Shown here piece by piece: positions 36,971 to 50,780 of a stretch of 52,329 bases of DNA. The notes under the pieces were generated by a model, which saw only the letters and a list, made by a program, of their open reading frames with translations, was not told the DNA's origin and did no database searches. Source of the stretch: Escherichia phage Mangalitsa; the sequence record NC_048799.1; one strand, 5' to 3'. The stretch's first letter is position 1, and each line of letters starts with the position of its first letter. A program made the translations under genes and the position numbers.

Positions 36971-37146
36971 TATCCCTGTTCCCAGACATAAAGTATTTTC
37001 TGCATCGTCCTATTATTGAAGATAGTTCCCTCTGTACTCTTCGTGAGTTGCAAGATGGAACTTATTCTTTAATAGATTTGTTGTTATTCCATGACATTCT
37101 CGATTTGCGTAAGAAACTCGAACCAGTAGAAGAAGACAATGGCTAA
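36874..37146 (+). CDS. -1 frame C-terminal extension of the tail assembly chaperone (GT-like fusion)
   Basis: Open -1 frame of about 90 codons with no start codon of its own, ending at TAA overlapping the tape-measure ATG. Confidence 0.5.
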   Translation, partial: QARARNQRTETVGGGGSIQAGRAEEFESGDSLVSLFPDIKYFLHRPIIEDSSLCTLRELQDGTYSLIDLLLFHDILDLRKKLEPVEEDNG

Positions 37147-40100
37147 TCAAAAAGATTTAATGAAGTTAGGCACTAGCGAGTTAATTGCTCTTGGTGCACA
37201 GAGCGGTCTGACTTTCCATGCTGGTATGAAGAAGTCGCACATGGTTCAACAACTTAGTGCGAGTGCTGCTTCTGGATGGATGGAAACAAATGCAGAATTA
37301 ATGGGTGGAACATTCGAAGATACTGGTGAAGTTTATACAGAATCTTTTGGGGATTCATCCATGATTTCAGACGCTGCTCATGTGGCTCAAATGCTCTCAG
37401 GAGCTGGTTACACAGAAGCGTTTCACAATGCAATGAACGGTCCACAACACCATGTAGAAGCAGTTCATGCATACATGGAAAGGCTCGGTGTCAACACAGA
37501 TGATGTGTGGATGCACATGCCGAAAGCCAATCCAAACTTGCCGCAGGGCAACTTCAATATGCTTAATGCCTATATGCGAGATACTTTGCAAGGGCATCAA
37601 GATATTATGCCGGAAATCCCAGGACATTACACTGGGGATATTATGGCAGAATACTCCACCAACCGTGGAAACATTGCTGACTCTTATAACTACATGGCCC
37701 ACATGTATGTTGACCGTGAGCAATATGCAAGTCATGAATTATACGCAAGAGACATTAGTCGAGTTGCCAAACGTCTGGAACAAGAGTTGCCTTCCTCCTT
37801 TAAGGAGATTGGGTATACCGCTGCCTCTAATGTAGGAAATAAATCGGCCCCACATATTTCATACATGGATGCACTTCCGCAAATTGGCTCTCCATCAATT
37901 GTTGCTGGCATTTCACATCCTCGCCAACCTCTTAATGCGTCTGGCTTACCACTTGGTTCTTATGGCTCTGGCATCAATCCAGAATATTCCCTCACTGCAT
38001 CATTAACTGGTGGCACTGGTTGGAGCGAACCAAGCAAGGCATTATATTCATCTATTAGCGAGGCTGTTAAGTCTGCTGCTAAAGTTTACTCTGGCAAAAC
38101 CGGAATGAACAACACGCGTCATGAAGTATCTGACCGTGACATGATTATGGATTCCGCTACTCGTTATGCTGATTTGGAAGAAGCTCGTAGTGGATATGCC
38201 AACCTTAAGTCAGAGCTTGCTGACGAACCTTCATATTCTGCATCAAGTGTTCGGGCAATTCTCGAAAACACTTATGACAAAATGGATGCTGAACCTATTC
38301 GCATTCCAGAAATGAAGTCTGCGTCACAGAAGATTGTTAAGGATTCACAATCAACTTCTACAGAGTTTACTGCACAACTTGGTGAAGCAACCAACTGGAA
38401 CTCTGCCAGAATGCGTCGTGAAGAACTTGCGATTGCAAACATGGATAGTGCAGGATTCAGGGATGTATCAGACTACGGAACTGGAAAGTCCGAGTCTCCA
38501 ATCAAGTTCCATGACCTTGAGCAAGGTAGTCAAGAGTGGTTAGACTTTCGTAAGCAGTACGACGTAACTGGTTCTACAGTTGGCACGTTCCTTGGTAACA
38601 ACGCATACACCCGACCTTGGGCTGGAATGGTTGACAAACTTGGAATATCCAGAAGTAAAGAGCCAAGCGATTTCACTAAGAAGATGTTCGCTGATGGTCA
38701 CAGAACGGAAGAAGAAGCACGCGCTCGCGTAAGTAAGGAATTTGGATTCAATATTGCTCAAACTGGCGCTATAACAAATGACAACTATCCCGCCTTTATG
38801 TATTCTCCTGACGGCCTTATTGGTGATGACGCCATTTGGGAGCATAAGAATCCGCAAAGGGCTGGTAAGTTTGCTGACCTTCTTAGTGGCGACCATCCAG
38901 ACTACATGGACCAAGTTCAATTTGGTATGCACGTATCTGGTCGTAACCGCGCTCTGTTCTCTCAAACTATCAACAACGAAACCCGTTCGCAATGGATTGA
39001 GAAGGACGAAGGATGGTACGAAAGAAACCGAAATCGTCTTGATTCTGTGCTTGGTCGTCTTGATGCTGGGCGAGAGTTTGTTAGAAACAATCCTTCACTA
39101 GACCGAGAAGAACTTGTCGCTGGTGCTCGTAGTGCAGTGGTGGGTGATGGCATCTGGAAGGATGTTAAGCAACGCTCTAATCGTGGGTTTAGTCCTGCTG
39201 CTGGTACGTCAGAAGACCCATTCATTGGTTCTCGTCCTTCTTTCGACCCAAATCCTGGCGGCACTTCTGACTACAAACCAAACTTTGTTATGCACGAGCA
39301 AAACTTCCCAGCTGTAGTTGGTGATGGAAGTAATGACTCAATGGCCCTTTCTGTTAAGCGTGGTATCTTAGCGGCACAGGAAGAAAACAAACAGAAAGGT
39401 ATCTCTGGTGTAGATGCCGATTTCGATGGCAAACAAGATTCCACTGTTGGTTGGAATCAGGAACGTTTCGATGCAGCAAATGGTGGCGGCAGTGGTGGCG
39501 GCGGTGGTCGAGGATATTTCTCGGCGGGTGGAAACTTTGGCGATGACTTTGGAAAGGCAGGTGGTGCACTTGCTTCTGGCATCGCTGGTGGTAGCTTATC
39601 TTCTGCATCAAACGGTGTGATGCAAGCACTGATGGCAACTCCTGCTGGACGTATGGCGGCAGTTGGTATTGGTGCAATTCAGATTGGTAACGAAGCTGCT
39701 GACTTCATGAATGATTACATTGGTCAATCTCTTGACGCTGGCGTAGCTAATCCAAATGAATACTCTTCCATGTCGCAAGGCTTGGAAATGTTGGGGCTAA
39801 ACTCCCAGCAAGCTAACCGTTTGAATCAAACCACACATAGTGCCTACAACACCATGCTTAACGGCGACCCCAGTGCCGCTGTGAACATTGTTCGTGGCAG
39901 TAGGGGATTGCTCACCATAGGTGATATTCGCTCGACTGGCGGCGACCCCGTGGCCTTAGCTCGCATTATGCAGGAAAGGGGCAAGGAACGTGGCTGGAGT
40001 CAGGCCCGTATCGCTGGTGCTGCCGAGATGGCTGGCCTACAGGGTATGGCGAGAGCATACGACCGCACGGAATACAGCCATGAGCGAGCAGGTTCGGTGG

Positions 40101-40858
40101 TAGAAAGCGGCAGAAACTCTGACTTTGCCGAAGGTATGGCCCAATCAGAAATGTTGCAGGTGGAGCGCGCACAGCTCCTGCCAGGGTATAACGTGCCACA
40201 AAGTGTGTTATCTCATGGTGCTGCACTGTTCGAAGCTGGAAGCACTGCTGCTGGTGCTGCTAACTCTGGATACAGCCAAGCCCGACAAGTTGCTGCAAAC
40301 GTTTATGATTTTATTGCTGGTGAAGAGTCTGGTGGCAGGGAATACAACAAGGATGGTACACGAGTTACAAGCCCAACTGGTGCTCGTGGAATCATGCAGG
40401 TTCTTCCTTCTACTGCTCGTGACCCAGGTTATGGAATCAAACCTTCTGATGGAAGTCCTGAAGATGATGCTCGTGTTGGTCGTGAATACTACGATGCGAT
40501 GTACAAACGATTCGGTGGCGACCATGAGAAAGCAATGGCTGCTTACACGGATGGTGCTGGAACTGTTGACAAGGCTGTCGATAAGTTTGGAATGGATTGG
40601 CTCAGTGCTGTTCCGGCTCAGGCTCAGAAGCGAGTTAAAGCGTATCGTGATTGGGCTAAGTCTTCCGAAGGCTTGGATGAAGGTGCGACTGGATTCACAC
40701 GGAATGGTATCTCCTATGGTCAAGCTCAAACCACTGTTAACGTGAAGATTGATGCGAAGGTTAATAACCAAACTGCATCTGCCACTGTAGCTGTTCCTGG
40801 CGGTCAGACTGTGACTCAGCAAATGAACATGCACAATGGTGCGCAACAAAGAAGATAA
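37139..40858 (+). CDS. tail tape measure protein with C-terminal soluble lytic transglycosylase domain
   Basis: 1239 aa; Gly-rich segments; transglycosylase signature GEESGGREYN...GARGIMQVLPSTARDPGYG. Confidence 0.75.
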   Translation: MANQKDLMKLGTSELIALGAQSGLTFHAGMKKSHMVQQLSASAASGWMETNAELMGGTFEDTGEVYTESFGDSSMISDAAHVAQMLSGAGYTEAFHNAMNGPQHHVEAVHAYMERLGVNTDDVWMHMPKANPNLPQGNFNMLNAYMRDTLQGHQDIMPEIPGHYTGDIMAEYSTNRGNIADSYNYMAHMYVDREQYASHELYARDISRVAKRLEQELPSSFKEIGYTAASNVGNKSAPHISYMDALPQIGSPSIVAGISHPRQPLNASGLPLGSYGSGINPEYSLTASLTGGTGWSEPSKALYSSISEAVKSAAKVYSGKTGMNNTRHEVSDRDMIMDSATRYADLEEARSGYANLKSELADEPSYSASSVRAILENTYDKMDAEPIRIPEMKSASQKIVKDSQSTSTEFTAQLGEATNWNSARMRREELAIANMDSAGFRDVSDYGTGKSESPIKFHDLEQGSQEWLDFRKQYDVTGSTVGTFLGNNAYTRPWAGMVDKLGISRSKEPSDFTKKMFADGHRTEEEARARVSKEFGFNIAQTGAITNDNYPAFMYSPDGLIGDDAIWEHKNPQRAGKFADLLSGDHPDYMDQVQFGMHVSGRNRALFSQTINNETRSQWIEKDEGWYERNRNRLDSVLGRLDAGREFVRNNPSLDREELVAGARSAVVGDGIWKDVKQRSNRGFSPAAGTSEDPFIGSRPSFDPNPGGTSDYKPNFVMHEQNFPAVVGDGSNDSMALSVKRGILAAQEENKQKGISGVDADFDGKQDSTVGWNQERFDAANGGGSGGGGGRGYFSAGGNFGDDFGKAGGALASGIAGGSLSSASNGVMQALMATPAGRMAAVGIGAIQIGNEAADFMNDYIGQSLDAGVANPNEYSSMSQGLEMLGLNSQQANRLNQTTHSAYNTMLNGDPSAAVNIVRGSRGLLTIGDIRSTGGDPVALARIMQERGKERGWSQARIAGAAEMAGLQGMARAYDRTEYSHERAGSVVESGRNSDFAEGMAQSEMLQVERAQLLPGYNVPQSVLSHGAALFEAGSTAAGAANSGYSQARQVAANVYDFIAGEESGGREYNKDGTRVTSPTGARGIMQVLPSTARDPGYGIKPSDGSPEDDARVGREYYDAMYKRFGGDHEKAMAAYTDGAGTVDKAVDKFGMDWLSAVPAQAQKRVKAYRDWAKSSEGLDEGATGFTRNGISYGQAQTTVNVKIDAKVNNQTASATVAVPGGQTVTQQMNMHNGAQQRR

Positions 40859-42927: not shown

Positions 42928-43292
42928 CAAACGCTGAAACACAAGCACAGGCATTTAATGAAATCATTAGCCTACTTCCTACAGGCTATGTGAAGACTGT
43001 CCCGTTTGATGTTTCCAAGGATGTATCCTTCGAGTTCTCTGGCGTCACAGTTAAAATGTCTGCCCTTTATTTAAACTCGTACTTGAACTGCTACATGTTT
43101 GACCTGGCTTGGGGAGCAACGAATAAAATATTCGGAATCCCTATCCGTTGTGGTGTTGATATTCTTGAACAATACTCGACACCACTTCCAAACATGTATG
43201 CAACAAATACGGTATTCCCTGGACAAGAGGTTGTAAGCTACAAACAACTCTCACTGTTCGTTATTGATGCGAGTGTTCTTGAACGTGGCTAG
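42924..43292 (+). CDS. putative baseplate protein
   Basis: Positional. Confidence 0.35.
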   Translation: MTNAETQAQAFNEIISLLPTGYVKTVPFDVSKDVSFEFSGVTVKMSALYLNSYLNCYMFDLAWGATNKIFGIPIRCGVDILEQYSTPLPNMYATNTVFPGQEVVSYKQLSLFVIDASVLERG

Positions 43293-44079
43293 TCATAACA
43301 ACAATCAAAATGCTCCAGATATTAATACCAGTTATCCAGGGCATATCTACAATTTCGATGCCGTAACACAAACGTGTGAAGTGCAGCTTGCAATTGAAAA
43401 CTTATTTGTTGGTTATGCAGAAGCATATACATTACAACCTAAGCAAAGATTGCAGGGAGTTCCTGTTCAGTTTATTCAGGGTGGTGGCTGGAGTTTAACC
43501 CACCCTGTTCCTGATGGCACTCCATGTTATGTACACTTCTCACAACGTGGCATCGACCACTGGTTATCAGAGAACAAGGATGTTGCTGGCATGATTGGTT
43601 CAAGACCTTCACCAGCATTCAGTCAATTGTTCTCGCACAATGCTGCCGTATGCACAATTGGTACTCAGCCAATTCCAAAAGTTATTGCCGGATTTGCTGG
43701 CGAGGTTACAGAACTTCGTAACGCAGATAGAAGCCAGCGACTGACAATGCACTCAAGTGGTTTAATCGAAATCATTACGGGTGCTGCCAAGATTCAAATC
43801 ACGAAAGACTCGGAGATTTTAATTGAAGTTACGTCGCAAGCAACAGTTAAAGCGCCGCAGATTACACTGGACGGCGACACAACAGTCACCAAATCGTTAA
43901 CTGTTTTAGGTGGCATGGCTGTATCTGGAACCAAAGATGGTTCTACTGCAACGTTCACTGGCAACTTCAAGATGGACGGCAACATGGTTCAAACTGGCTC
44001 CCTCACCCTTAATGGTATTAAGGTTGATGGTCACACCCACACTAACCCAGAAGGCGGCGATGTTGGGCCGATGAAATAA
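43267..44079 (+). CDS. baseplate central spike protein (gpV-like)
   Basis: Position before a gp25/W-like gene; C-terminal beta-helix-like Gly/Thr-rich region ending GHTHTNPEGG (His-x-His tip). Confidence 0.5.
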   Translation: MRVFLNVASHNNNQNAPDINTSYPGHIYNFDAVTQTCEVQLAIENLFVGYAEAYTLQPKQRLQGVPVQFIQGGGWSLTHPVPDGTPCYVHFSQRGIDHWLSENKDVAGMIGSRPSPAFSQLFSHNAAVCTIGTQPIPKVIAGFAGEVTELRNADRSQRLTMHSSGLIEIITGAAKIQITKDSEILIEVTSQATVKAPQITLDGDTTVTKSLTVLGGMAVSGTKDGSTATFTGNFKMDGNMVQTGSLTLNGIKVDGHTHTNPEGGDVGPMK

Positions 44080-45584: not shown

Positions 45585-46226
45585 ATGGCTACTAAACATG
45601 GCTTGGAGATGTTGTTATCTCAGTATTACAACTCGCCAAACTTAAAGAAGTACATTTCAATCTTCATTGAAGAGTTTGCTGAAGTTAAACAAGCCATGTC
45701 CGACTCTGTAAAGTATCGTTACCTTGCAGATTCCTTTGGCGTCATGGTTGATGACATTGCCTACATTGTTGGCACTGAACGTACAATTATTGGCGCTGAA
45801 GCTATCGGATACTTTGGCTTCTATCGTGACCCGTCTGCATACCCAGCAGGTGATGACAACGACCCAGATGTTGGTGGCATACTTAAGTCAGATTATGACA
45901 AAGACTCCGGTGACTTCGTTCGTACCGATGAGCAACTTAAGAATGCTATTCGTGCCAGGATTACCAAAATCACTGGCAACTGTAACATCGAACAAATCAT
46001 TACATACCTTGAACTTGTAATTGGACGAGACTTAGACCTTGAAATTAGAGAAGGGTTTAAGCGAATGGATTATATTGTCCATGAGAGTTTATCTGTTGCA
46101 GACAAGGTTATGCTGGCTCACATGATTCCACGATTTAAACCTGTTGGAATCACTGTAACACTTGAAGATAATAATGGCGTTATCGACCTGGTGTTCAGTT
46201 CTAAAGACTTCCCGCCGGAGACATAA
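45585..46226 (+). CDS. putative baseplate/tail protein (gpI-like position)
   Basis: Positional. Confidence 0.4.
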   Translation: MATKHGLEMLLSQYYNSPNLKKYISIFIEEFAEVKQAMSDSVKYRYLADSFGVMVDDIAYIVGTERTIIGAEAIGYFGFYRDPSAYPAGDDNDPDVGGILKSDYDKDSGDFVRTDEQLKNAIRARITKITGNCNIEQIITYLELVIGRDLDLEIREGFKRMDYIVHESLSVADKVMLAHMIPRFKPVGITVTLEDNNGVIDLVFSSKDFPPET

Positions 46227-47371
46227 TGACTAATCGTTTAACTTTCCAATTTCCCTGGGCGCAAGATGGTGAAGTTGCTGACCCAGACTTAGACACAACC
46301 AACCCAAGTTACGTTGCAAACCGATATGCAGACATGGGATGGGAAGCTGAGAAGCCTCCAAACGAATGGCAGAACTTCTTAACACAGATTAGCGATTTAA
46401 AGATTATGTCTTTACTCTTCTCTGGTGTGGCAGAGTTTGATAGCAGTGTTACATATCAAACTGGTGCAGTGTCTGTCCTTAATGGTGTTGTGCAAATTAA
46501 GGTTGCCTCCGGTTGGGAACAAATCCTGGACATGAAGACTGTCGATTATTTAAATGATGTTGCAGCATTGAAACTCATTTATGATAATCACATGGCAGCA
46601 ACCAACCCTCACCAAGATACAGTTGAGACACTTACAGATAAGAGTCGCACCAAAGAGTATCTGGATGCTGCATTCGGAAGTCCTACCGACCCACAAACAA
46701 TTGTTTATCATAAATTGCAACAAGGTCGTGTTCACCAGGAAACTCCAGAGCAGGTTGGGACTCTTCCAATATCTGGTGGTACATTCACTGGTCCTGTGTC
46801 ATTCCTTGCTGGGATGGGGTTTGCAACAAACAACACTGTCAGTATGAACGGTGCAACAGGTCGTTTGGAACTTCGTAGTGGTAATCGTATTCTGTCTATT
46901 GATGCTCTAGGAAATGTTATCTGGAGCATAGTTGGTGGTGAAGAATATCCCGTGATGACGGAGCTGAATTACTCAGAGTTTCAAATCCGTTGGGGAAACA
47001 GATTTGCACTCCCAACACCATACTTGAGCATGAACCTATCTGCCAGTATTAATGATGCTTGCTCTGTTCGTGGTTGGAAGATTTCAACAACGGGAACACC
47101 AGCATTTCACCCTATGGGTGGGTTGAAGATTGATGACAATACTGTAACCTTCTCCGGATTTGATGTTTCTTGTCCAACCACAATAGTGGCCTTTACAAGA
47201 AATGCTTCCGGTACTCTTGGGAGAGGTAACTCTGATGCTCCGTCTGGTGGGTATACAAGCCTTAACACACTCCTTACGAACCTTGGAATAGTTGATGCTG
47301 CTTACATCGTAAGTATCACTTGCTACCCAACGTTAACCGCTTATCAGAAATCAATGTTAGTGAGGCCATAA
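46226..47371 (+). CDS. putative tail fiber protein
   Basis: Contains NPHQDT fiber-repeat-like segment. Confidence 0.45.
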   Translation: MTNRLTFQFPWAQDGEVADPDLDTTNPSYVANRYADMGWEAEKPPNEWQNFLTQISDLKIMSLLFSGVAEFDSSVTYQTGAVSVLNGVVQIKVASGWEQILDMKTVDYLNDVAALKLIYDNHMAATNPHQDTVETLTDKSRTKEYLDAAFGSPTDPQTIVYHKLQQGRVHQETPEQVGTLPISGGTFTGPVSFLAGMGFATNNTVSMNGATGRLELRSGNRILSIDALGNVIWSIVGGEEYPVMTELNYSEFQIRWGNRFALPTPYLSMNLSASINDACSVRGWKISTTGTPAFHPMGGLKIDDNTVTFSGFDVSCPTTIVAFTRNASGTLGRGNSDAPSGGYTSLNTLLTNLGIVDAAYIVSITCYPTLTAYQKSMLVRP

Positions 47372-48765
47372 TGGCGCTTCGTCCTGAATTAAACCGCGTC
47401 TGGACTTCAAACAACTCTGTTGCCAGACGTGACCCAGGGGATGCAAAGTATCTCCAAGGTTGGGTTGCTGAGATACCAACCTATCAAGTTTTAAACTATT
47501 TGCAGTACAAAGTTGATACCACAATGCTTGCTCAGGCGGAACGTGGAATCTTCGAGTGGGGTGGTGATGTTTCTTATGGTGTTGGCAGTTTGGCTTGGGA
47601 CGAAACAAACAAAACTATTTATGTTTGTACTGTAACAAACCCAAGCAAGACTTTAGCACCAAGTGTCAACCCTTCTCAATGGAGTCCGAGCGCCATTCAG
47701 GTATCTCGTGCAAATTATGACTCTGTTGTGTCTGCAATCAATAACCACATTGCAAACCGAGCAAACCCACACCAAGTAACTGCTGCACAGGTTGGTACAT
47801 ATAACCGTGCTGAAATGGATGCGCTTGTTTCAAACTACCGTGCAATGGTGTTGGCCCACGCCTCAGACTACAACAACCCACACAACTTAACTGCTGTTCA
47901 AGTTGGTGCTGTTCCTGTAACTGGTGGTGAGTATACTGGTCAGGTTACTATGCCAACTGCATACTTCAATGAGTCCAAAACTGCACAACTGTTGCAAGAC
48001 AATGGACTATGGTTGAAGAATGGCAACTACTTACTAGGTATTAACGGTACGACAGGGAATCCCGAAGCAGGAACTGCTGCAAGCAAGTCCCGGATAGTCA
48101 CAGAACTTATCTTCCCAGACTTGAAAGCTGCACAAGAGTCTGAATATGCAGTAGAAGCGCCATACTATGAAATGGCACTAATAGGTTCTGTAAACATACT
48201 TCGTGGCACAGGAACATTCAGTACCGGGAACTCCGAGCCTATGTACTTGGCATCATCTGGTGGTGCTCTAACATTCGACAGCTCACCAACCAGCCCATCA
48301 CAGTCATTCAACGCTTCTTCACAACTCCCTGCTGGCCCAAGTATGACGGTCTGTGCCGATGTTATGAGGGTGTCACAGTCTGATACAAGTGATGGCAACT
48401 GGCAGCTAAGTTTCGGCACCGCAGATTTCAATATCACCATTGGGTACAATGGGTATACTACCATTAGGTACAGGAGCCTAGCAGGAAGTATTGCTGTAAT
48501 ATTGCAGGGTGTAATCTCCCAAGATTTGAAAACCGTAGGTGTGTGGAACAGGGTGTCGGCAACACTTTCTGGAAGCACTATGAAGGTGTTTGTAAACGGT
48601 GCACTGCTATTCTACAAAGAGCAAGAAGTTGGTGTTGCAGTGGAGAGAGCGCCATTTATAACTAAATGGGCTATGGTTGGGGCTACCACAAACTCTAGAA
48701 TGTCTATTAGGGCTTTTAGGTTGTGGGACTCGGCACTAACAGATAAACAAATCTCAACCTTATAG
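47371..48765 (+). CDS. putative tail fiber protein
   Basis: Repeated NPHQVTAAQVG / NPHNLTAVQVGA fiber-repeat motifs; ATG 47371 with GAGG RBS. Confidence 0.5.
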   Translation: MALRPELNRVWTSNNSVARRDPGDAKYLQGWVAEIPTYQVLNYLQYKVDTTMLAQAERGIFEWGGDVSYGVGSLAWDETNKTIYVCTVTNPSKTLAPSVNPSQWSPSAIQVSRANYDSVVSAINNHIANRANPHQVTAAQVGTYNRAEMDALVSNYRAMVLAHASDYNNPHNLTAVQVGAVPVTGGEYTGQVTMPTAYFNESKTAQLLQDNGLWLKNGNYLLGINGTTGNPEAGTAASKSRIVTELIFPDLKAAQESEYAVEAPYYEMALIGSVNILRGTGTFSTGNSEPMYLASSGGALTFDSSPTSPSQSFNASSQLPAGPSMTVCADVMRVSQSDTSDGNWQLSFGTADFNITIGYNGYTTIRYRSLAGSIAVILQGVISQDLKTVGVWNRVSATLSGSTMKVFVNGALLFYKEQEVGVAVERAPFITKWAMVGATTNSRMSIRAFRLWDSALTDKQISTL

Positions 48766-48773
48766 GATTCAAA

Positions 48774-49859
48774 ATGGCTAAAGGCTATTCTTTAGACGCG
48801 TTGGTGCAAGAGCACTATATGAAGTCTAGTACCAACCTGGATAATATAAATATCGACACCCTTACAGGAATGGATAGTGTTGGAGTGTATTACCAGTCAT
48901 ACAACGCTTATGCCATACTTGCAAATAATTACCCTCCAGGTGCGCAAGCAGGTACTTTGGAGGTTATTCCAACAAACGTAGGCTCTGCGGGTCGTGTGAC
49001 ACAAAGATATACAAACTGGCAAGACCTTCGTATGTGGGTGCGCGGCCAAAGTGGAAGCACGACGGCGGCCGATTTAAGTTTTAGCCCGTGGGTGGAGTTT
49101 ATAAATGCCAACAACATTTATAATGCCATCTATCCGATTGGTATTGTTCTCAAGTTTGATAACGCCACCAACCCAAACAACTCCTTCACAGGAACTGTGT
49201 GGCAACAAATCACAGATGGTCGTGCTGTTCGTGCTGCAACTTCTGCTGTGGCTGGAGCTACCGATGGACAGATTGGTTCTGTAGCTGGCAGTGATTCTGC
49301 ATCAATCGCTGTAGCCAACCTCCCATCACACACCCACAACATGCGTAACCATACCCACTCTATTGCGTCCCACACGCACACTATGGCCCATACGCACTCA
49401 ATAAACCACGACCACGGTGCGGTAACATCGAGTTCGGCTGGTGCTCACACACACAGCTTGAGTGGCACTGCTGCTTCTGCTGGGAACCACAACCACAACC
49501 AGGGCGTTGCATGGGAGCATGGTGGCGACACGCAGTATGGCTCTGTTACTGTTGGTAACAAGTCGCGTCGCCAGGACTGGCTTGATGGTGGTAACAACCA
49601 GTATCCTAAGACTTCAACCAACGGTGCTCACACACATAGTGTTAGTGGTACTGCAAACTCTGCTGGCGCTCACACGCACTCTGTAGACCTGCCTAACTTC
49701 ACAGGCACAAGTGGTGGCTCCAGTGCTGCTAACACAGGCGGTACTGCCCTGACGACTGGTGCACCTAGCTCCAACGAATCGGATGCAACTGGCGGCGGTA
49801 CTGCCTTAACCGTCCGTAACTCATCTCACTACTATGCCCTCTGGAAACGAGTGGCTTAA
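48774..49859 (+). CDS. tail fiber distal protein with His-x-His repeats
   Basis: HTHNMRNHTHSIASHTHTMAHTHSINHDHG and two further GAHTHS repeats, resembling metal-coordinating HxH motifs of myovirus fiber tips. Confidence 0.55.
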   Translation: MAKGYSLDALVQEHYMKSSTNLDNINIDTLTGMDSVGVYYQSYNAYAILANNYPPGAQAGTLEVIPTNVGSAGRVTQRYTNWQDLRMWVRGQSGSTTAADLSFSPWVEFINANNIYNAIYPIGIVLKFDNATNPNNSFTGTVWQQITDGRAVRAATSAVAGATDGQIGSVAGSDSASIAVANLPSHTHNMRNHTHSIASHTHTMAHTHSINHDHGAVTSSSAGAHTHSLSGTAASAGNHNHNQGVAWEHGGDTQYGSVTVGNKSRRQDWLDGGNNQYPKTSTNGAHTHSVSGTANSAGAHTHSVDLPNFTGTSGGSSAANTGGTALTTGAPSSNESDATGGGTALTVRNSSHYYALWKRVA

Positions 49860-49866
49860 GGAAATC

Positions 49867-50208
49867 ATGGAACGCTTATCCATTCAGATGTTTCTCGACC
49901 TCATGCACCAATACGGCGTTTGGCATGGATTGCTGGCTGGCCTGACGGCTCTAATCCGTGGGGCATACGAGAGTGAGGGTTTAAGCAAGGCGTTGCTGGA
50001 TGCGACGCTATGCAGCTTAATCGGCCTGTTTGCATTTCAGGTCGCTGGCACATTTGAGACTTTCACGACTAACGTCACTATGCAGTTAGTTCTTGCGATT
50101 GTTATCGGTGTGATTGGTGCAAACCTCATTATCACAACTGTCAGGGAAAGTTTCTCTGGCGCAATCAAACAACTTAATCCTTTGACGTGGTTCAAGAAGG
50201 CACGATGA
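49867..50208 (+). CDS. putative holin
   Basis: Three predicted TM segments, basic C-terminus, AAGGAA RBS; immediately upstream of a cell-wall hydrolase. Confidence 0.45.
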   Translation: MERLSIQMFLDLMHQYGVWHGLLAGLTALIRGAYESEGLSKALLDATLCSLIGLFAFQVAGTFETFTTNVTMQLVLAIVIGVIGANLIITTVRESFSGAIKQLNPLTWFKKAR

Positions 50209-50225
50209 AATGATAAGGAACTCGA

Positions 50226-50780
50226 ATGCTATCATTCAAAGTTCTTGCACTTCTGACAGCTTTAGTTCACATCAACGCCCCAGCTTCGGTTGGGGCAGTG
50301 AATTCTGCTATTACAGATTTTGCAAGTCATTCCTATTTAAATGGAAGTCTGAAACTATCTTCTTCACAACGCAAAGAGCTAGAATGCTATACTAAAGTAA
50401 TCTGGTACGAAGCTCGTGGTGAAGATAAACATGGAAAGATTCTGGTAGCTAATGTCGTCCGTAATAGAACAGAGTTCGGGAAGCCATTCGCTAACACCGT
50501 TTGTAATGTTGTCTACCAACGCAATCAATTTGCATGGACACGAGAAGCAAAGAAGAAGAATGCTCAATGGAAGCATGTAGCAAAGATTAATTATGCCACA
50601 GAACAACAACAAGTTCTGGACACCATTAATGTTGCAATCTCTTTTGTACTATTTAATCAACCCTCTATCACCAAAGCAACTCACTTTTGTACAGCATCGG
50701 AGAAGTGCAACTTCAAGAATGTCAAAGGTCTGGGCCGCTATGGTGGACATAAATTCTATGAGTATCTAGGAAATCTGTAA
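50226..50780 (+). CDS. SleB-type cell wall hydrolase with N-terminal signal or signal-anchor sequence
   Basis: [29 protein letters not shown]...[17 protein letters not shown] matches the SleB/CwlJ catalytic-domain pattern; hydrophobic N-terminus [24 protein letters not shown]. Confidence 0.65.

Follow-up and report, generated by a model that had tools for sequence, protein, structure and literature searches.

A putative metal-stabilised receptor-binding tip of the T4 gp37 type in the tail fibre of Escherichia phage Mangalitsa

Escherichia phage Mangalitsa carries a gene whose product contains a dense cluster of His-x-His (HxH) motifs, and this raises the question of which kind of virion protein it encodes and what the histidines may do there. 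The stretch of DNA that we analysed, referred to here as the window, comprises 52,329 bp and represents the whole genome of this phage (GenBank MN045229), for which the genome announcement likewise gives a length of 52,329 bp (PMC6753284). Mangalitsa, a myophage similar to phiEcoM-GJ1, belongs to the genus Carltongylesvirus in the family Chaseviridae. We consider it very probable that the gene product is a short tail fibre, complete in itself and homotrimeric, with a gp37-type tip that contains structural metals, where the trimer, the hairpin register, the metal and the receptor role are all read from the sequence.

The interval 48774-49859 was found to contain exactly one open reading frame, running from an ATG at 48774 to a stop codon at 49857-49859 (361 aa), and this start codon is backed by the N-terminus MAKGYSLDALV, which is invariant among 22 homologues. 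The product is 100% identical to the deposited Mangalitsa 'tail fiber protein' and matches the PHROGs family phrog_2097 'tail fiber protein' (E = 9e-43); a search of NCBIfam with the fibre protein gave zero family matches. Orthologues in phiEcoM-GJ1, SKA49, ST32, Bp7, flopper and others share 57-71% identity over 100% of the length, and all of them are annotated as tail fibres. In SKA49 and phiEcoM-GJ1 the gene has the same position as in Mangalitsa, 3' of two fibre genes and 5' of the holin gene. On full-length orthology and gene position, the Mangalitsa protein belongs to the phiEcoM-GJ1-type tail fibres of the Chaseviridae (Carltongylesvirus). Within the genome the gene closes a baseplate-fibre module (Baseplate_J, DUF2612 and two other fibre genes), with the two further fibre-like genes (46226-47371 and 47368-48765) lying directly upstream, and holin and endolysin come next. 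The preliminary description had presented the whole gene as a fibre tip. A tip is indeed encoded, at about residues 108-361, but the gene product as a whole is an entire fibre that includes the anchor domain. The features of the gene are collected in the table.

Table. Features of the tail fibre gene and of its 361-residue product (positions refer to the whole 52,329-bp window)
Feature	Position	Strand	Basis or remark
Shine-Dalgarno sequence AGGA, 6 nt 5' of the ATG	48764..48767	+	sequence inspection
Tail fibre gene, 361 aa + stop	48774..49859	+	GenBank 'tail fiber protein' of Mangalitsa
Invariant N-terminal peptide, aa 1-13, MAKGYSLDALVQE	48774..48812	+	94% mean pairwise identity, 45 homologues
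N-terminal globular domain, aa 14-107	48813..49094	+	48% identity; pLDDT 90-97 over residues 21-90
Collar, gp10/gp37 type, aa 108-185	49095..49328	+	Gp10_C, 2FKK, collar part of 2XGF
Ascending needle strand, aa 186-241, seven HxH (186-239)	49329..49496	+	aligns with gp37 883-931
Hypervariable head loop, aa 242-285, hairpin turn	49497..49628	+	aligns with gp37 head/tip subdomain 932-963
Descending needle strand, aa 286-350, two HxH (286, 300)	49629..49823	+	aligns with gp37 966-1010
C-terminal strand, aa 351-361, SHYYALWKRVA, back to the collar, + stop	49824..49859	+	91% family identity

Comparison of 45 homologues separates parts of the protein that are constant from parts that vary. The collar has no indels in this set and is predicted mostly at a pLDDT of 79-97, and the two needle strands have the same length in all 45 sequences (56 aa for the ascending and 65 aa for the descending strand). 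The head loop, with lengths of 30-44 aa, indels and a pLDDT below 50, has a mean pairwise identity of 26%, whereas mean identity in the needle and the collar is 72-78%. The head loop is the probable region of receptor contact and determinant of specificity. For the N-terminal part, the globular domain is probably the virion-anchoring ('shoulder') domain, and the short peptide in front of it probably serves as a docking segment. This peptide is invariant although the domain that adjoins it is variable. In the descending strand, an invariant stretch rich in Gly, Ser and Thr, PNFTGTSGGSS..TGGT.LTTG.PS, comes after the two HxH motifs. The last 11 residues, SHYYALWKRVA, are predicted at a pLDDT of 86-93. 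They align with the strand that ends T4 gp10, PYITVYRWIRIA, and the alignment with 2FKK covers the collar plus the last 28 profile positions. The terminus of gp37, IAFNYIVRLA, resembles SHYYALWKRVA as well, as judged by eye, since the profile alignment ends just short of it.

Which known fold these parts correspond to emerges from profile searches. With the single sequence, the PDB gave marginal matches to 2FKK (0.1) and 2XGF (0.34). A profile of the 22-sequence family found the T4 gp37 tip, 2XGF, as best match (E = 2.4e-7), and with a profile of 103 sequences that includes distant relatives the E-value of 2XGF was 1.9e-24, over chain residues 24-236 of 242. This alignment spans the collar, the needle, the head and the return strand. 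The second-best match of the 103-sequence profile was 2FKK, the C-terminal domain of T4 gp10 (E = 7e-12), and the long fibre of cyanophage A-1(L), 8KEC, was also found (E = 6e-8). Alignment of the fibre family with gp37 785-1026 by hhalign gave a probability of 97%, and a tblastn search of the genome with the same part of gp37 matched positions 49131-49691 with 28% identity over 191 aa (E = 7e-6). Among Pfam families, Gp10_C (PF21939) is the sole one to exceed its gathering cut-off, over residues 116-242 (E = 1.7e-7).

Three other assignments were tried and rejected. The tip type of the T4 short tail fibre gp12, with its single Zn-binding HxH, finds no support in homology, as no gp12 chain occurs among the PDB matches at E <= 1 for the 103-sequence profile or at E <= 10 for the single sequence. 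The Phage_fiber repeat PF03335 reaches 13.8 bits (E = 0.064) over residues 220-233, below its gathering cut-off of 20 bits, and YmaF (PF12788) reaches 17.1 bits (E = 0.008), below a cut-off of 27 bits. A precomputed match to PF03335 exists in two relatives, a repeat type that is related and sub-threshold in Mangalitsa. The metal-stabilised beta-structured receptor-binding tip of T4-like long and short fibres, to which the preliminary description had compared the protein, is supported by the gp37 tip homology on the long-fibre side, while its short-fibre side is left without a gp12 match.

The protein contains nine HxH motifs, which start at residues 186, 193, 200, 206, 212, 225, 239, 286 and 300 and comprise seven HTH, one HDH and one HNH. 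They fit within 117 residues, between 186 and 302, and take up 18 of the 21 histidines of the fibre. The earlier count of at least eight HTH/HxH motifs in about 120 residues is thereby confirmed, and the number lies far above expectation: whole-protein shuffles (100,000) gave a mean of 1.16 motifs and a maximum of seven, with none reaching nine, and when only the His-rich residues 180-310 were shuffled, nine motifs were attained in 8 of 100,000 cases. The other plus-strand open reading frames of at least 100 aa in the genome have at most two HxH each. A DNA tandem repeat as the origin of the motifs was rejected. The sole such repeat in the gene is a 17-nt AACCAC run and, without a longer one, the cluster is not an artefact of slippage.

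Moreover, in a set of 45 Chaseviridae-type homologues with 56-88% identity, we found all 18 motif histidines in every sequence; the middle residue is free to vary (T, S, A, D, K, N, Q, Y, F, H or I). Invariant histidines around a varying middle residue are the signature of paired ligand residues rather than of a compositional quirk. Distant homologues have 5-12 HxH, with splits between the outgoing and the returning strand from 8+1 to 6+6, so that nine motifs are not exceptional.

The structure of the gp37 tip has been described as a collar (811-881 and 1010-1026) and a needle, D11 (882-1009), with the tip subdomain at its end (PMC6957217). The chain doubles back at the head, which results in a six-stranded needle (PMC12609058). 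Seven irons in this needle are coordinated by histidines, and the exchanges H929A and H931A abolish plaque formation; surface residues of the head/tip subdomain bind LPS and OmpC (PMC6957217). The HxH motifs of gp37 lie at 883, 915 and 929 on the outgoing strand and at 966, 980, 989 and 998 on the returning strand. In the alignment, the Mangalitsa motifs at 225, 239, 286 and 300 fall on gp37 H915/917, H929/931, H966/968 and H980/982, respectively, and gp37 883 has the first motif (186 or 193) as its counterpart, giving four or five positionally homologous HxH. The two proteins have a similar motif context, 'G-x-H-x-H-S-x-S-G-T/S', and the same plan, in which a collar is followed by an out-and-back needle with HxH on both strands, a small head and a C-terminus that returns to the collar (gp37 ~811-1026, 2XGF). 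Homology, the collar and the HxH motifs on both strands strongly suggest that the part from residue ~108 to 361 is a receptor-binding tip like that of T4 gp37.

On the basis of this homology, the HxH motifs most likely coordinate metal. [quoted passage not shown] They do lie inside the gp37-like tip, but in its needle shaft and not in the part that would contact the receptor. The differences from gp37 concern numbers and context. Mangalitsa has nine motifs (seven up and two down) and T4 gp37 seven (three up and four down); moreover, the Mangalitsa tip sits on a 107-aa anchor domain within a protein of 361 aa, whereas the gp37 tip ends a distal half-fibre of 1026 aa, the identity between the two being ~28%.

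If the chain runs out and back, the motifs of the two strands can be placed relative to each other by a simple register rule, according to which the outgoing and returning residue numbers at equal height sum to a constant, the one fitted parameter. With a constant of 518, the nine motifs of the Mangalitsa fibre fall into single file with spacings of 7, 7, 6, 6, 6, 7, 7 and 7, and the order of sites from collar to head would be 186, 193, 200, 206, 212, 300, 225, 286 and 239. In this register, the motifs of each strand fit exactly into the gaps that the other strand leaves. For gp37, a constant of 1888 gives spacings of 7, 9, 9, 7, 7 and 7. Applied to the family, an interleaved ladder with all spacings between 6 and 9 was obtained for 25 of the 34 homologues that have at least two HxH per strand. 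When the gaps of the returning strand were redrawn, the mean was 5.8 homologues, and when the order of gaps was permuted within strands it was 10.4; in neither null did any of 2000 trials reach at least 25. These results support an arrangement in which the HxH of both strands interleave into one axial row, although the test is supportive and not conclusive, given one fitted offset and the relatedness of the sequences. From the same register we infer the placement of the proximal four sites. In this arrangement P307-S332, an invariant stretch of small residues on the returning strand, lies across from the five close-packed proximal motifs. The gp37-type metal needle appears to extend to the Chaseviridae, with a variable motif count and strand split and with the single-file ladder of 6-9 residues kept.

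Structure prediction was informative for part of the protein. The AF2 model of the monomer was good for the N-terminal domain and the collar, with a pLDDT of 58-70 in the needle and below 50 in the head, and structure searches with this monomer model did not retrieve 2XGF. A pseudo-trimer, in which residues 104-361 were repeated three times with 25-aa Gly/Ser linkers and a tripled alignment of 16 rows, reached a pLDDT of 31.5 and a pTM of 0.21, and this model was not used.

Taken together with what is known of gp37, these data suggest the following architecture. Residues 1-107, the invariant peptide and the variable globular domain, would anchor the fibre to the baseplate or to another fibre. 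Each chain would then form the collar, run out along the fibre axis (186-241), turn in the head (242-285), come back (286-350) and end in the strand that completes the collar. Three such out-and-back chains would give a six-stranded needle. At each of nine successive levels, one strand per chain would point its HxH pair into the axis, where six imidazoles could coordinate one buried ion, most likely Fe2+ as in gp37. The nine ions of a trimer would rivet the three chains in register, which would give the metals a structural role. Host specificity would be located in the head loop and perhaps in the variable N-terminal domain as well.

How such a needle might fold is a separate matter. It has been shown that folding of gp37 depends on gp38 and gp57A (PMC6957217). 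In T4 the gene order is 37-38-t, whereas in Mangalitsa the gp38 gene is absent and the holin gene directly follows the fibre gene on its 3' side; a tblastn search of the genome for a gp38-type chaperone gene gave no credible match (best E = 0.23). With the holin gene in this place and no gp38 homologue, folding may be independent of a chaperone or may proceed via an unrecognised factor. In the more far-reaching version of this idea, the needle would fold by itself and the nine ions would template the registration of the trimer without help of the gp38 type. The five proximal sites would then all be provided by outgoing-strand HxH every 6-7 residues, and the returning strand would be reduced to a Gly/Ser/Thr wrap. 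We consider this version quite unlikely. If it were true, a temperature limit of folding might explain that Mangalitsa and its relative ST32 form plaques only at <=30 C.

Several other explanations have to be weighed against a gp37-type fibre with structural iron. The same fold might hold a different metal, such as Zn2+ as in gp12, Ni, Co or Mn, or a mixture that depends on supply. Six-histidine octahedral sites lack strict selectivity for a metal, and our sequence results favour no particular one. Thomassen et al. are said to have found in 2003 that T4 gp12 binds Zn via one HxH per chain. The homologous structure, however, is that of gp37 and not of gp12, which does not occur among the PDB matches at E <= 1, and the gp37 sites with which the motifs align have been reported to bind iron (PMC6957217, PMC12609058). 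A metal other than iron is therefore possible, but in our view rather unlikely. A different role for bound iron is proposed in the 'Ferrojan horse' hypothesis for HxH-bearing fibres (cited in PMC11705849), in which the metal itself would be the ligand and would mimic a ferric siderophore in docking on a TonB-dependent iron receptor. A trimer with nine putative iron sites would indeed carry a high load. In gp37, on the other hand, each iron lies buried on the axis with six histidines completing its coordination, which makes the irons inaccessible to a receptor (PMC6957217). The histidines of the fibre moreover stay the same where host range and head loops change, as fits a structural role and not one in recognition, and there is no known link of the Chaseviridae to siderophore receptors. 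For these reasons we regard iron as the receptor ligand as highly improbable.

The two remaining alternatives question the fibre tip or its metal sites as such. The protein might be a baseplate protein of the T4 gp10 type, which links other fibres to the wedge instead of binding a receptor. Such a role would agree with the fact that Gp10_C alone among Pfam families passes its gathering cut-off, with the second rank of gp10 structures in the PDB (E = 7e-12) and with the two other fibre-like genes directly upstream. The similarity to the gp10 C-domain (2FKK; PF21939), however, is limited to the collar and the closing C-terminal strand, whereas the alignment with the gp37 tip runs from the collar through needle and head into the return strand, and its E-value is far better. 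T4 gp10, a component of the baseplate wedge and not a fibre tip, has neither an HxH needle nor a head. A hypervariable head together with mosaic gene replacement is the pattern of a host-range determinant, and PHROGs as well as all annotated homologues speak of a tail fibre; a gp10-type function is thus decidedly unlikely. It could also be asked whether the HxH cluster is a compositionally biased linker of low complexity that lacks ordered metal sites, for example a spacer rich in His, Thr, Ser and Gly or a repeat like that of YmaF. H, T, S, G and A are abundant in this region, the gp37 alignment has a high bias component in HMMER, YmaF matches weakly under its cut-off (E = 0.008), and the AF2 confidence in the needle is modest. 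Against this stand 18 histidines whose positions are fixed and free of indels throughout the 45 homologues, next to a variable middle residue, the profile match to 2XGF (E = 1.9e-24) and the strand-complementary ladder that is found family-wide. A disordered linker of this kind is scarcely credible.

For a fibre of the gp37 type, the distribution of sequence variation is of particular interest. Compared with SKA49, the closest genome in the collection compared, the flanks of the gene show 88-100% nucleotide identity in 150-nt windows. Inside the gene, identity drops to 48-54% for the N-terminal domain and 67-68% for the head, with 76-78% for the needle strands and 83% for the collar. With 48-83% identity against 88-100% in its flanks, the gene is a mosaic hotspot. 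The mosaicism and the variability of the head may be taken as evidence of a diversifying host-range module. The fixed scaffold would consist of the collar and both needle strands, with constant length and invariant histidines, and the variable parts of the 30-44-aa head loop and the N-terminal domain. Telling these parts apart provides a rational boundary for host-range engineering, and swaps of the head loop or of the whole tip among Carltongylesvirus phages should be structurally tolerated.

Fibres of a similar type have been described in other phages. According to work by cryo-EM and modelling, the long and the short fibres of Felixounavirus (Bas63, Felix O1 group) have a C-terminal gp37-like tip with a collar, an HxH needle (6-7 motifs) and a head (PMC12609058). 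These fibres match residues 123-361 of the Mangalitsa fibre at 33-40% identity, but they differ in their N-terminal parts and shaft lengths, have fewer HxH and belong to the Ounavirinae and not to the Chaseviridae. The long fibre gp34 of cyanophage A-1(L), with 379 aa and a length of 274 A, has a shoulder that docks on the baseplate wedge and a gp37-like arm (PMC10966104). In size and plan it is alike, and the profile match to its structure (8KEC, E = 6e-8) extends over the collar and the proximal needle. This match is weaker and shorter, the HxH in the alignment are fewer and less regular, and host and lineage are unrelated. Sf14 is a further example of a gp37-type HxH fibre (PMC11821841).

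In the passages searched of the literature on phiEcoM-GJ1, ST32, 4HA13, PYps23T and Mangalitsa, the HxH motifs of the fibre are not mentioned. The gene already bears its tail fibre annotation and fibres with a gp37-type tip are well known, and the HxH needle in Mangalitsa is unremarked in those same passages. Relative to gp37, the novelty of the Mangalitsa fibre is a modest variation in the number of sites and in their distribution over the strands, and the current understanding of tail fibres is unchanged by it.

A single HxH per trimer chain, with a buried axial iron, is found at the apex of the central spike of P2 (gpV) and phi92 (gp138), according to work cited in PMC12609058 and PMC11821841. 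There, one site is located in a membrane-piercing beta-helical spike, whereas the Mangalitsa fibre would have a multi-site needle and a role in receptor binding. The spike candidate of Mangalitsa itself (43264-44079) contains a single HTH.

Using SKA49, the closest relative of Mangalitsa in our collection, for comparison, we found that nucleotide identity falls to 48-83% within the fibre gene (48774-49859), whereas it is 88-100% on either flank, so that the gene is sharply set off as a mosaic segment. Inside the gene, the N-domain (48-54%) and the head (67-68%) are the least similar parts, and the collar is the most similar (83%). This pattern suggests that modules of the fibre gene have been replaced by recombination. 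Four homologous fibre proteins (P0042, P0100, P0111 and P0118) display at least two sequence types of the N-terminal domain, 'EHY.KS...' and 'ERWSRY...' (alignment A1 of these homologues, columns 14-110), and the N-domain types pair independently with differing head-loop types. Such combinations indicate that modules are shuffled inside the fibre gene.

The gene order fibre-holin-endolysin is conserved. In T4 the order is 37-38-t, while in Mangalitsa the fibre gene is followed by the holin gene, and the missing element is therefore the gene for the chaperone, gp38, which gp37 needs for folding. An alternative holin start, the ATG at 49868 with AAGGAA before it, agrees with the annotations of SKA49 and phiEcoM-GJ1, where the holin begins 8-9 nt past the fibre stop. 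One report states that Mangalitsa forms plaques at 22-30 C only and none at 37 C, and that a comparable temperature sensitivity was reported for ST32 (PMC6753284). It is pure speculation that temperature-limited folding of a chaperone-less fibre might set this limit in Mangalitsa.

Features surrounding the fibre gene of Mangalitsa
Feature	Coordinates	Strand	Remarks
1239-aa protein	37139-40858	+	YqaJ-like domain 466-602; SLT lytic transglycosylase domain 1045-1149
271-aa ORF, central-spike N-terminal domain	43264-44079	+	Pfam PF18352, E = 1e-17
First upstream fibre-like gene	46226-47371	+	phrog_8147 'tail fiber protein'
Second upstream fibre-like gene	47368-48765	+	phrog_8147 'tail fiber protein'
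Holin ORF as listed	49834-50208	+	Listed start falls within 3' end of fibre gene
Endolysin	50226-50780		Hydrolase_2/SleB-like

Two fibre-like genes lie directly 5' of the fibre gene, and Mangalitsa thus has three candidate receptor-binding proteins. Both upstream products lack an HxH motif; in the second, the C-terminal part holds a Laminin_G_3/ConA-like lectin domain (E = 1e-6). For this second gene, the TTG at 47320 taken by the mechanical ORF call is probably the wrong start. A likelier start is the ATG at 47368, which overlaps the first gene's stop codon in the sequence ATGA; in SKA49, the 463-aa homologue also begins where the first fibre gene of that phage ends.

In a report on the related Yersinia phage PYps23T, Gp76 (1,224 aa), probably the counterpart of the 1239-aa protein, is named 'main tail fiber protein' (PMC8762354). 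Because of its YqaJ-like and SLT domains, the Mangalitsa product suggests a tape-measure or ejected cell-wall-degrading protein rather than the main tail fibre.

The spike-candidate ORF contains a single HTH, at residues 257-259 near the C-terminus. This motif probably marks the apex of the baseplate spike, where iron would be bound as in spikes of the P2 gpV / phi92 gp138 type. In that case the virion would possess a second HxH metal site, independent of the fibre.
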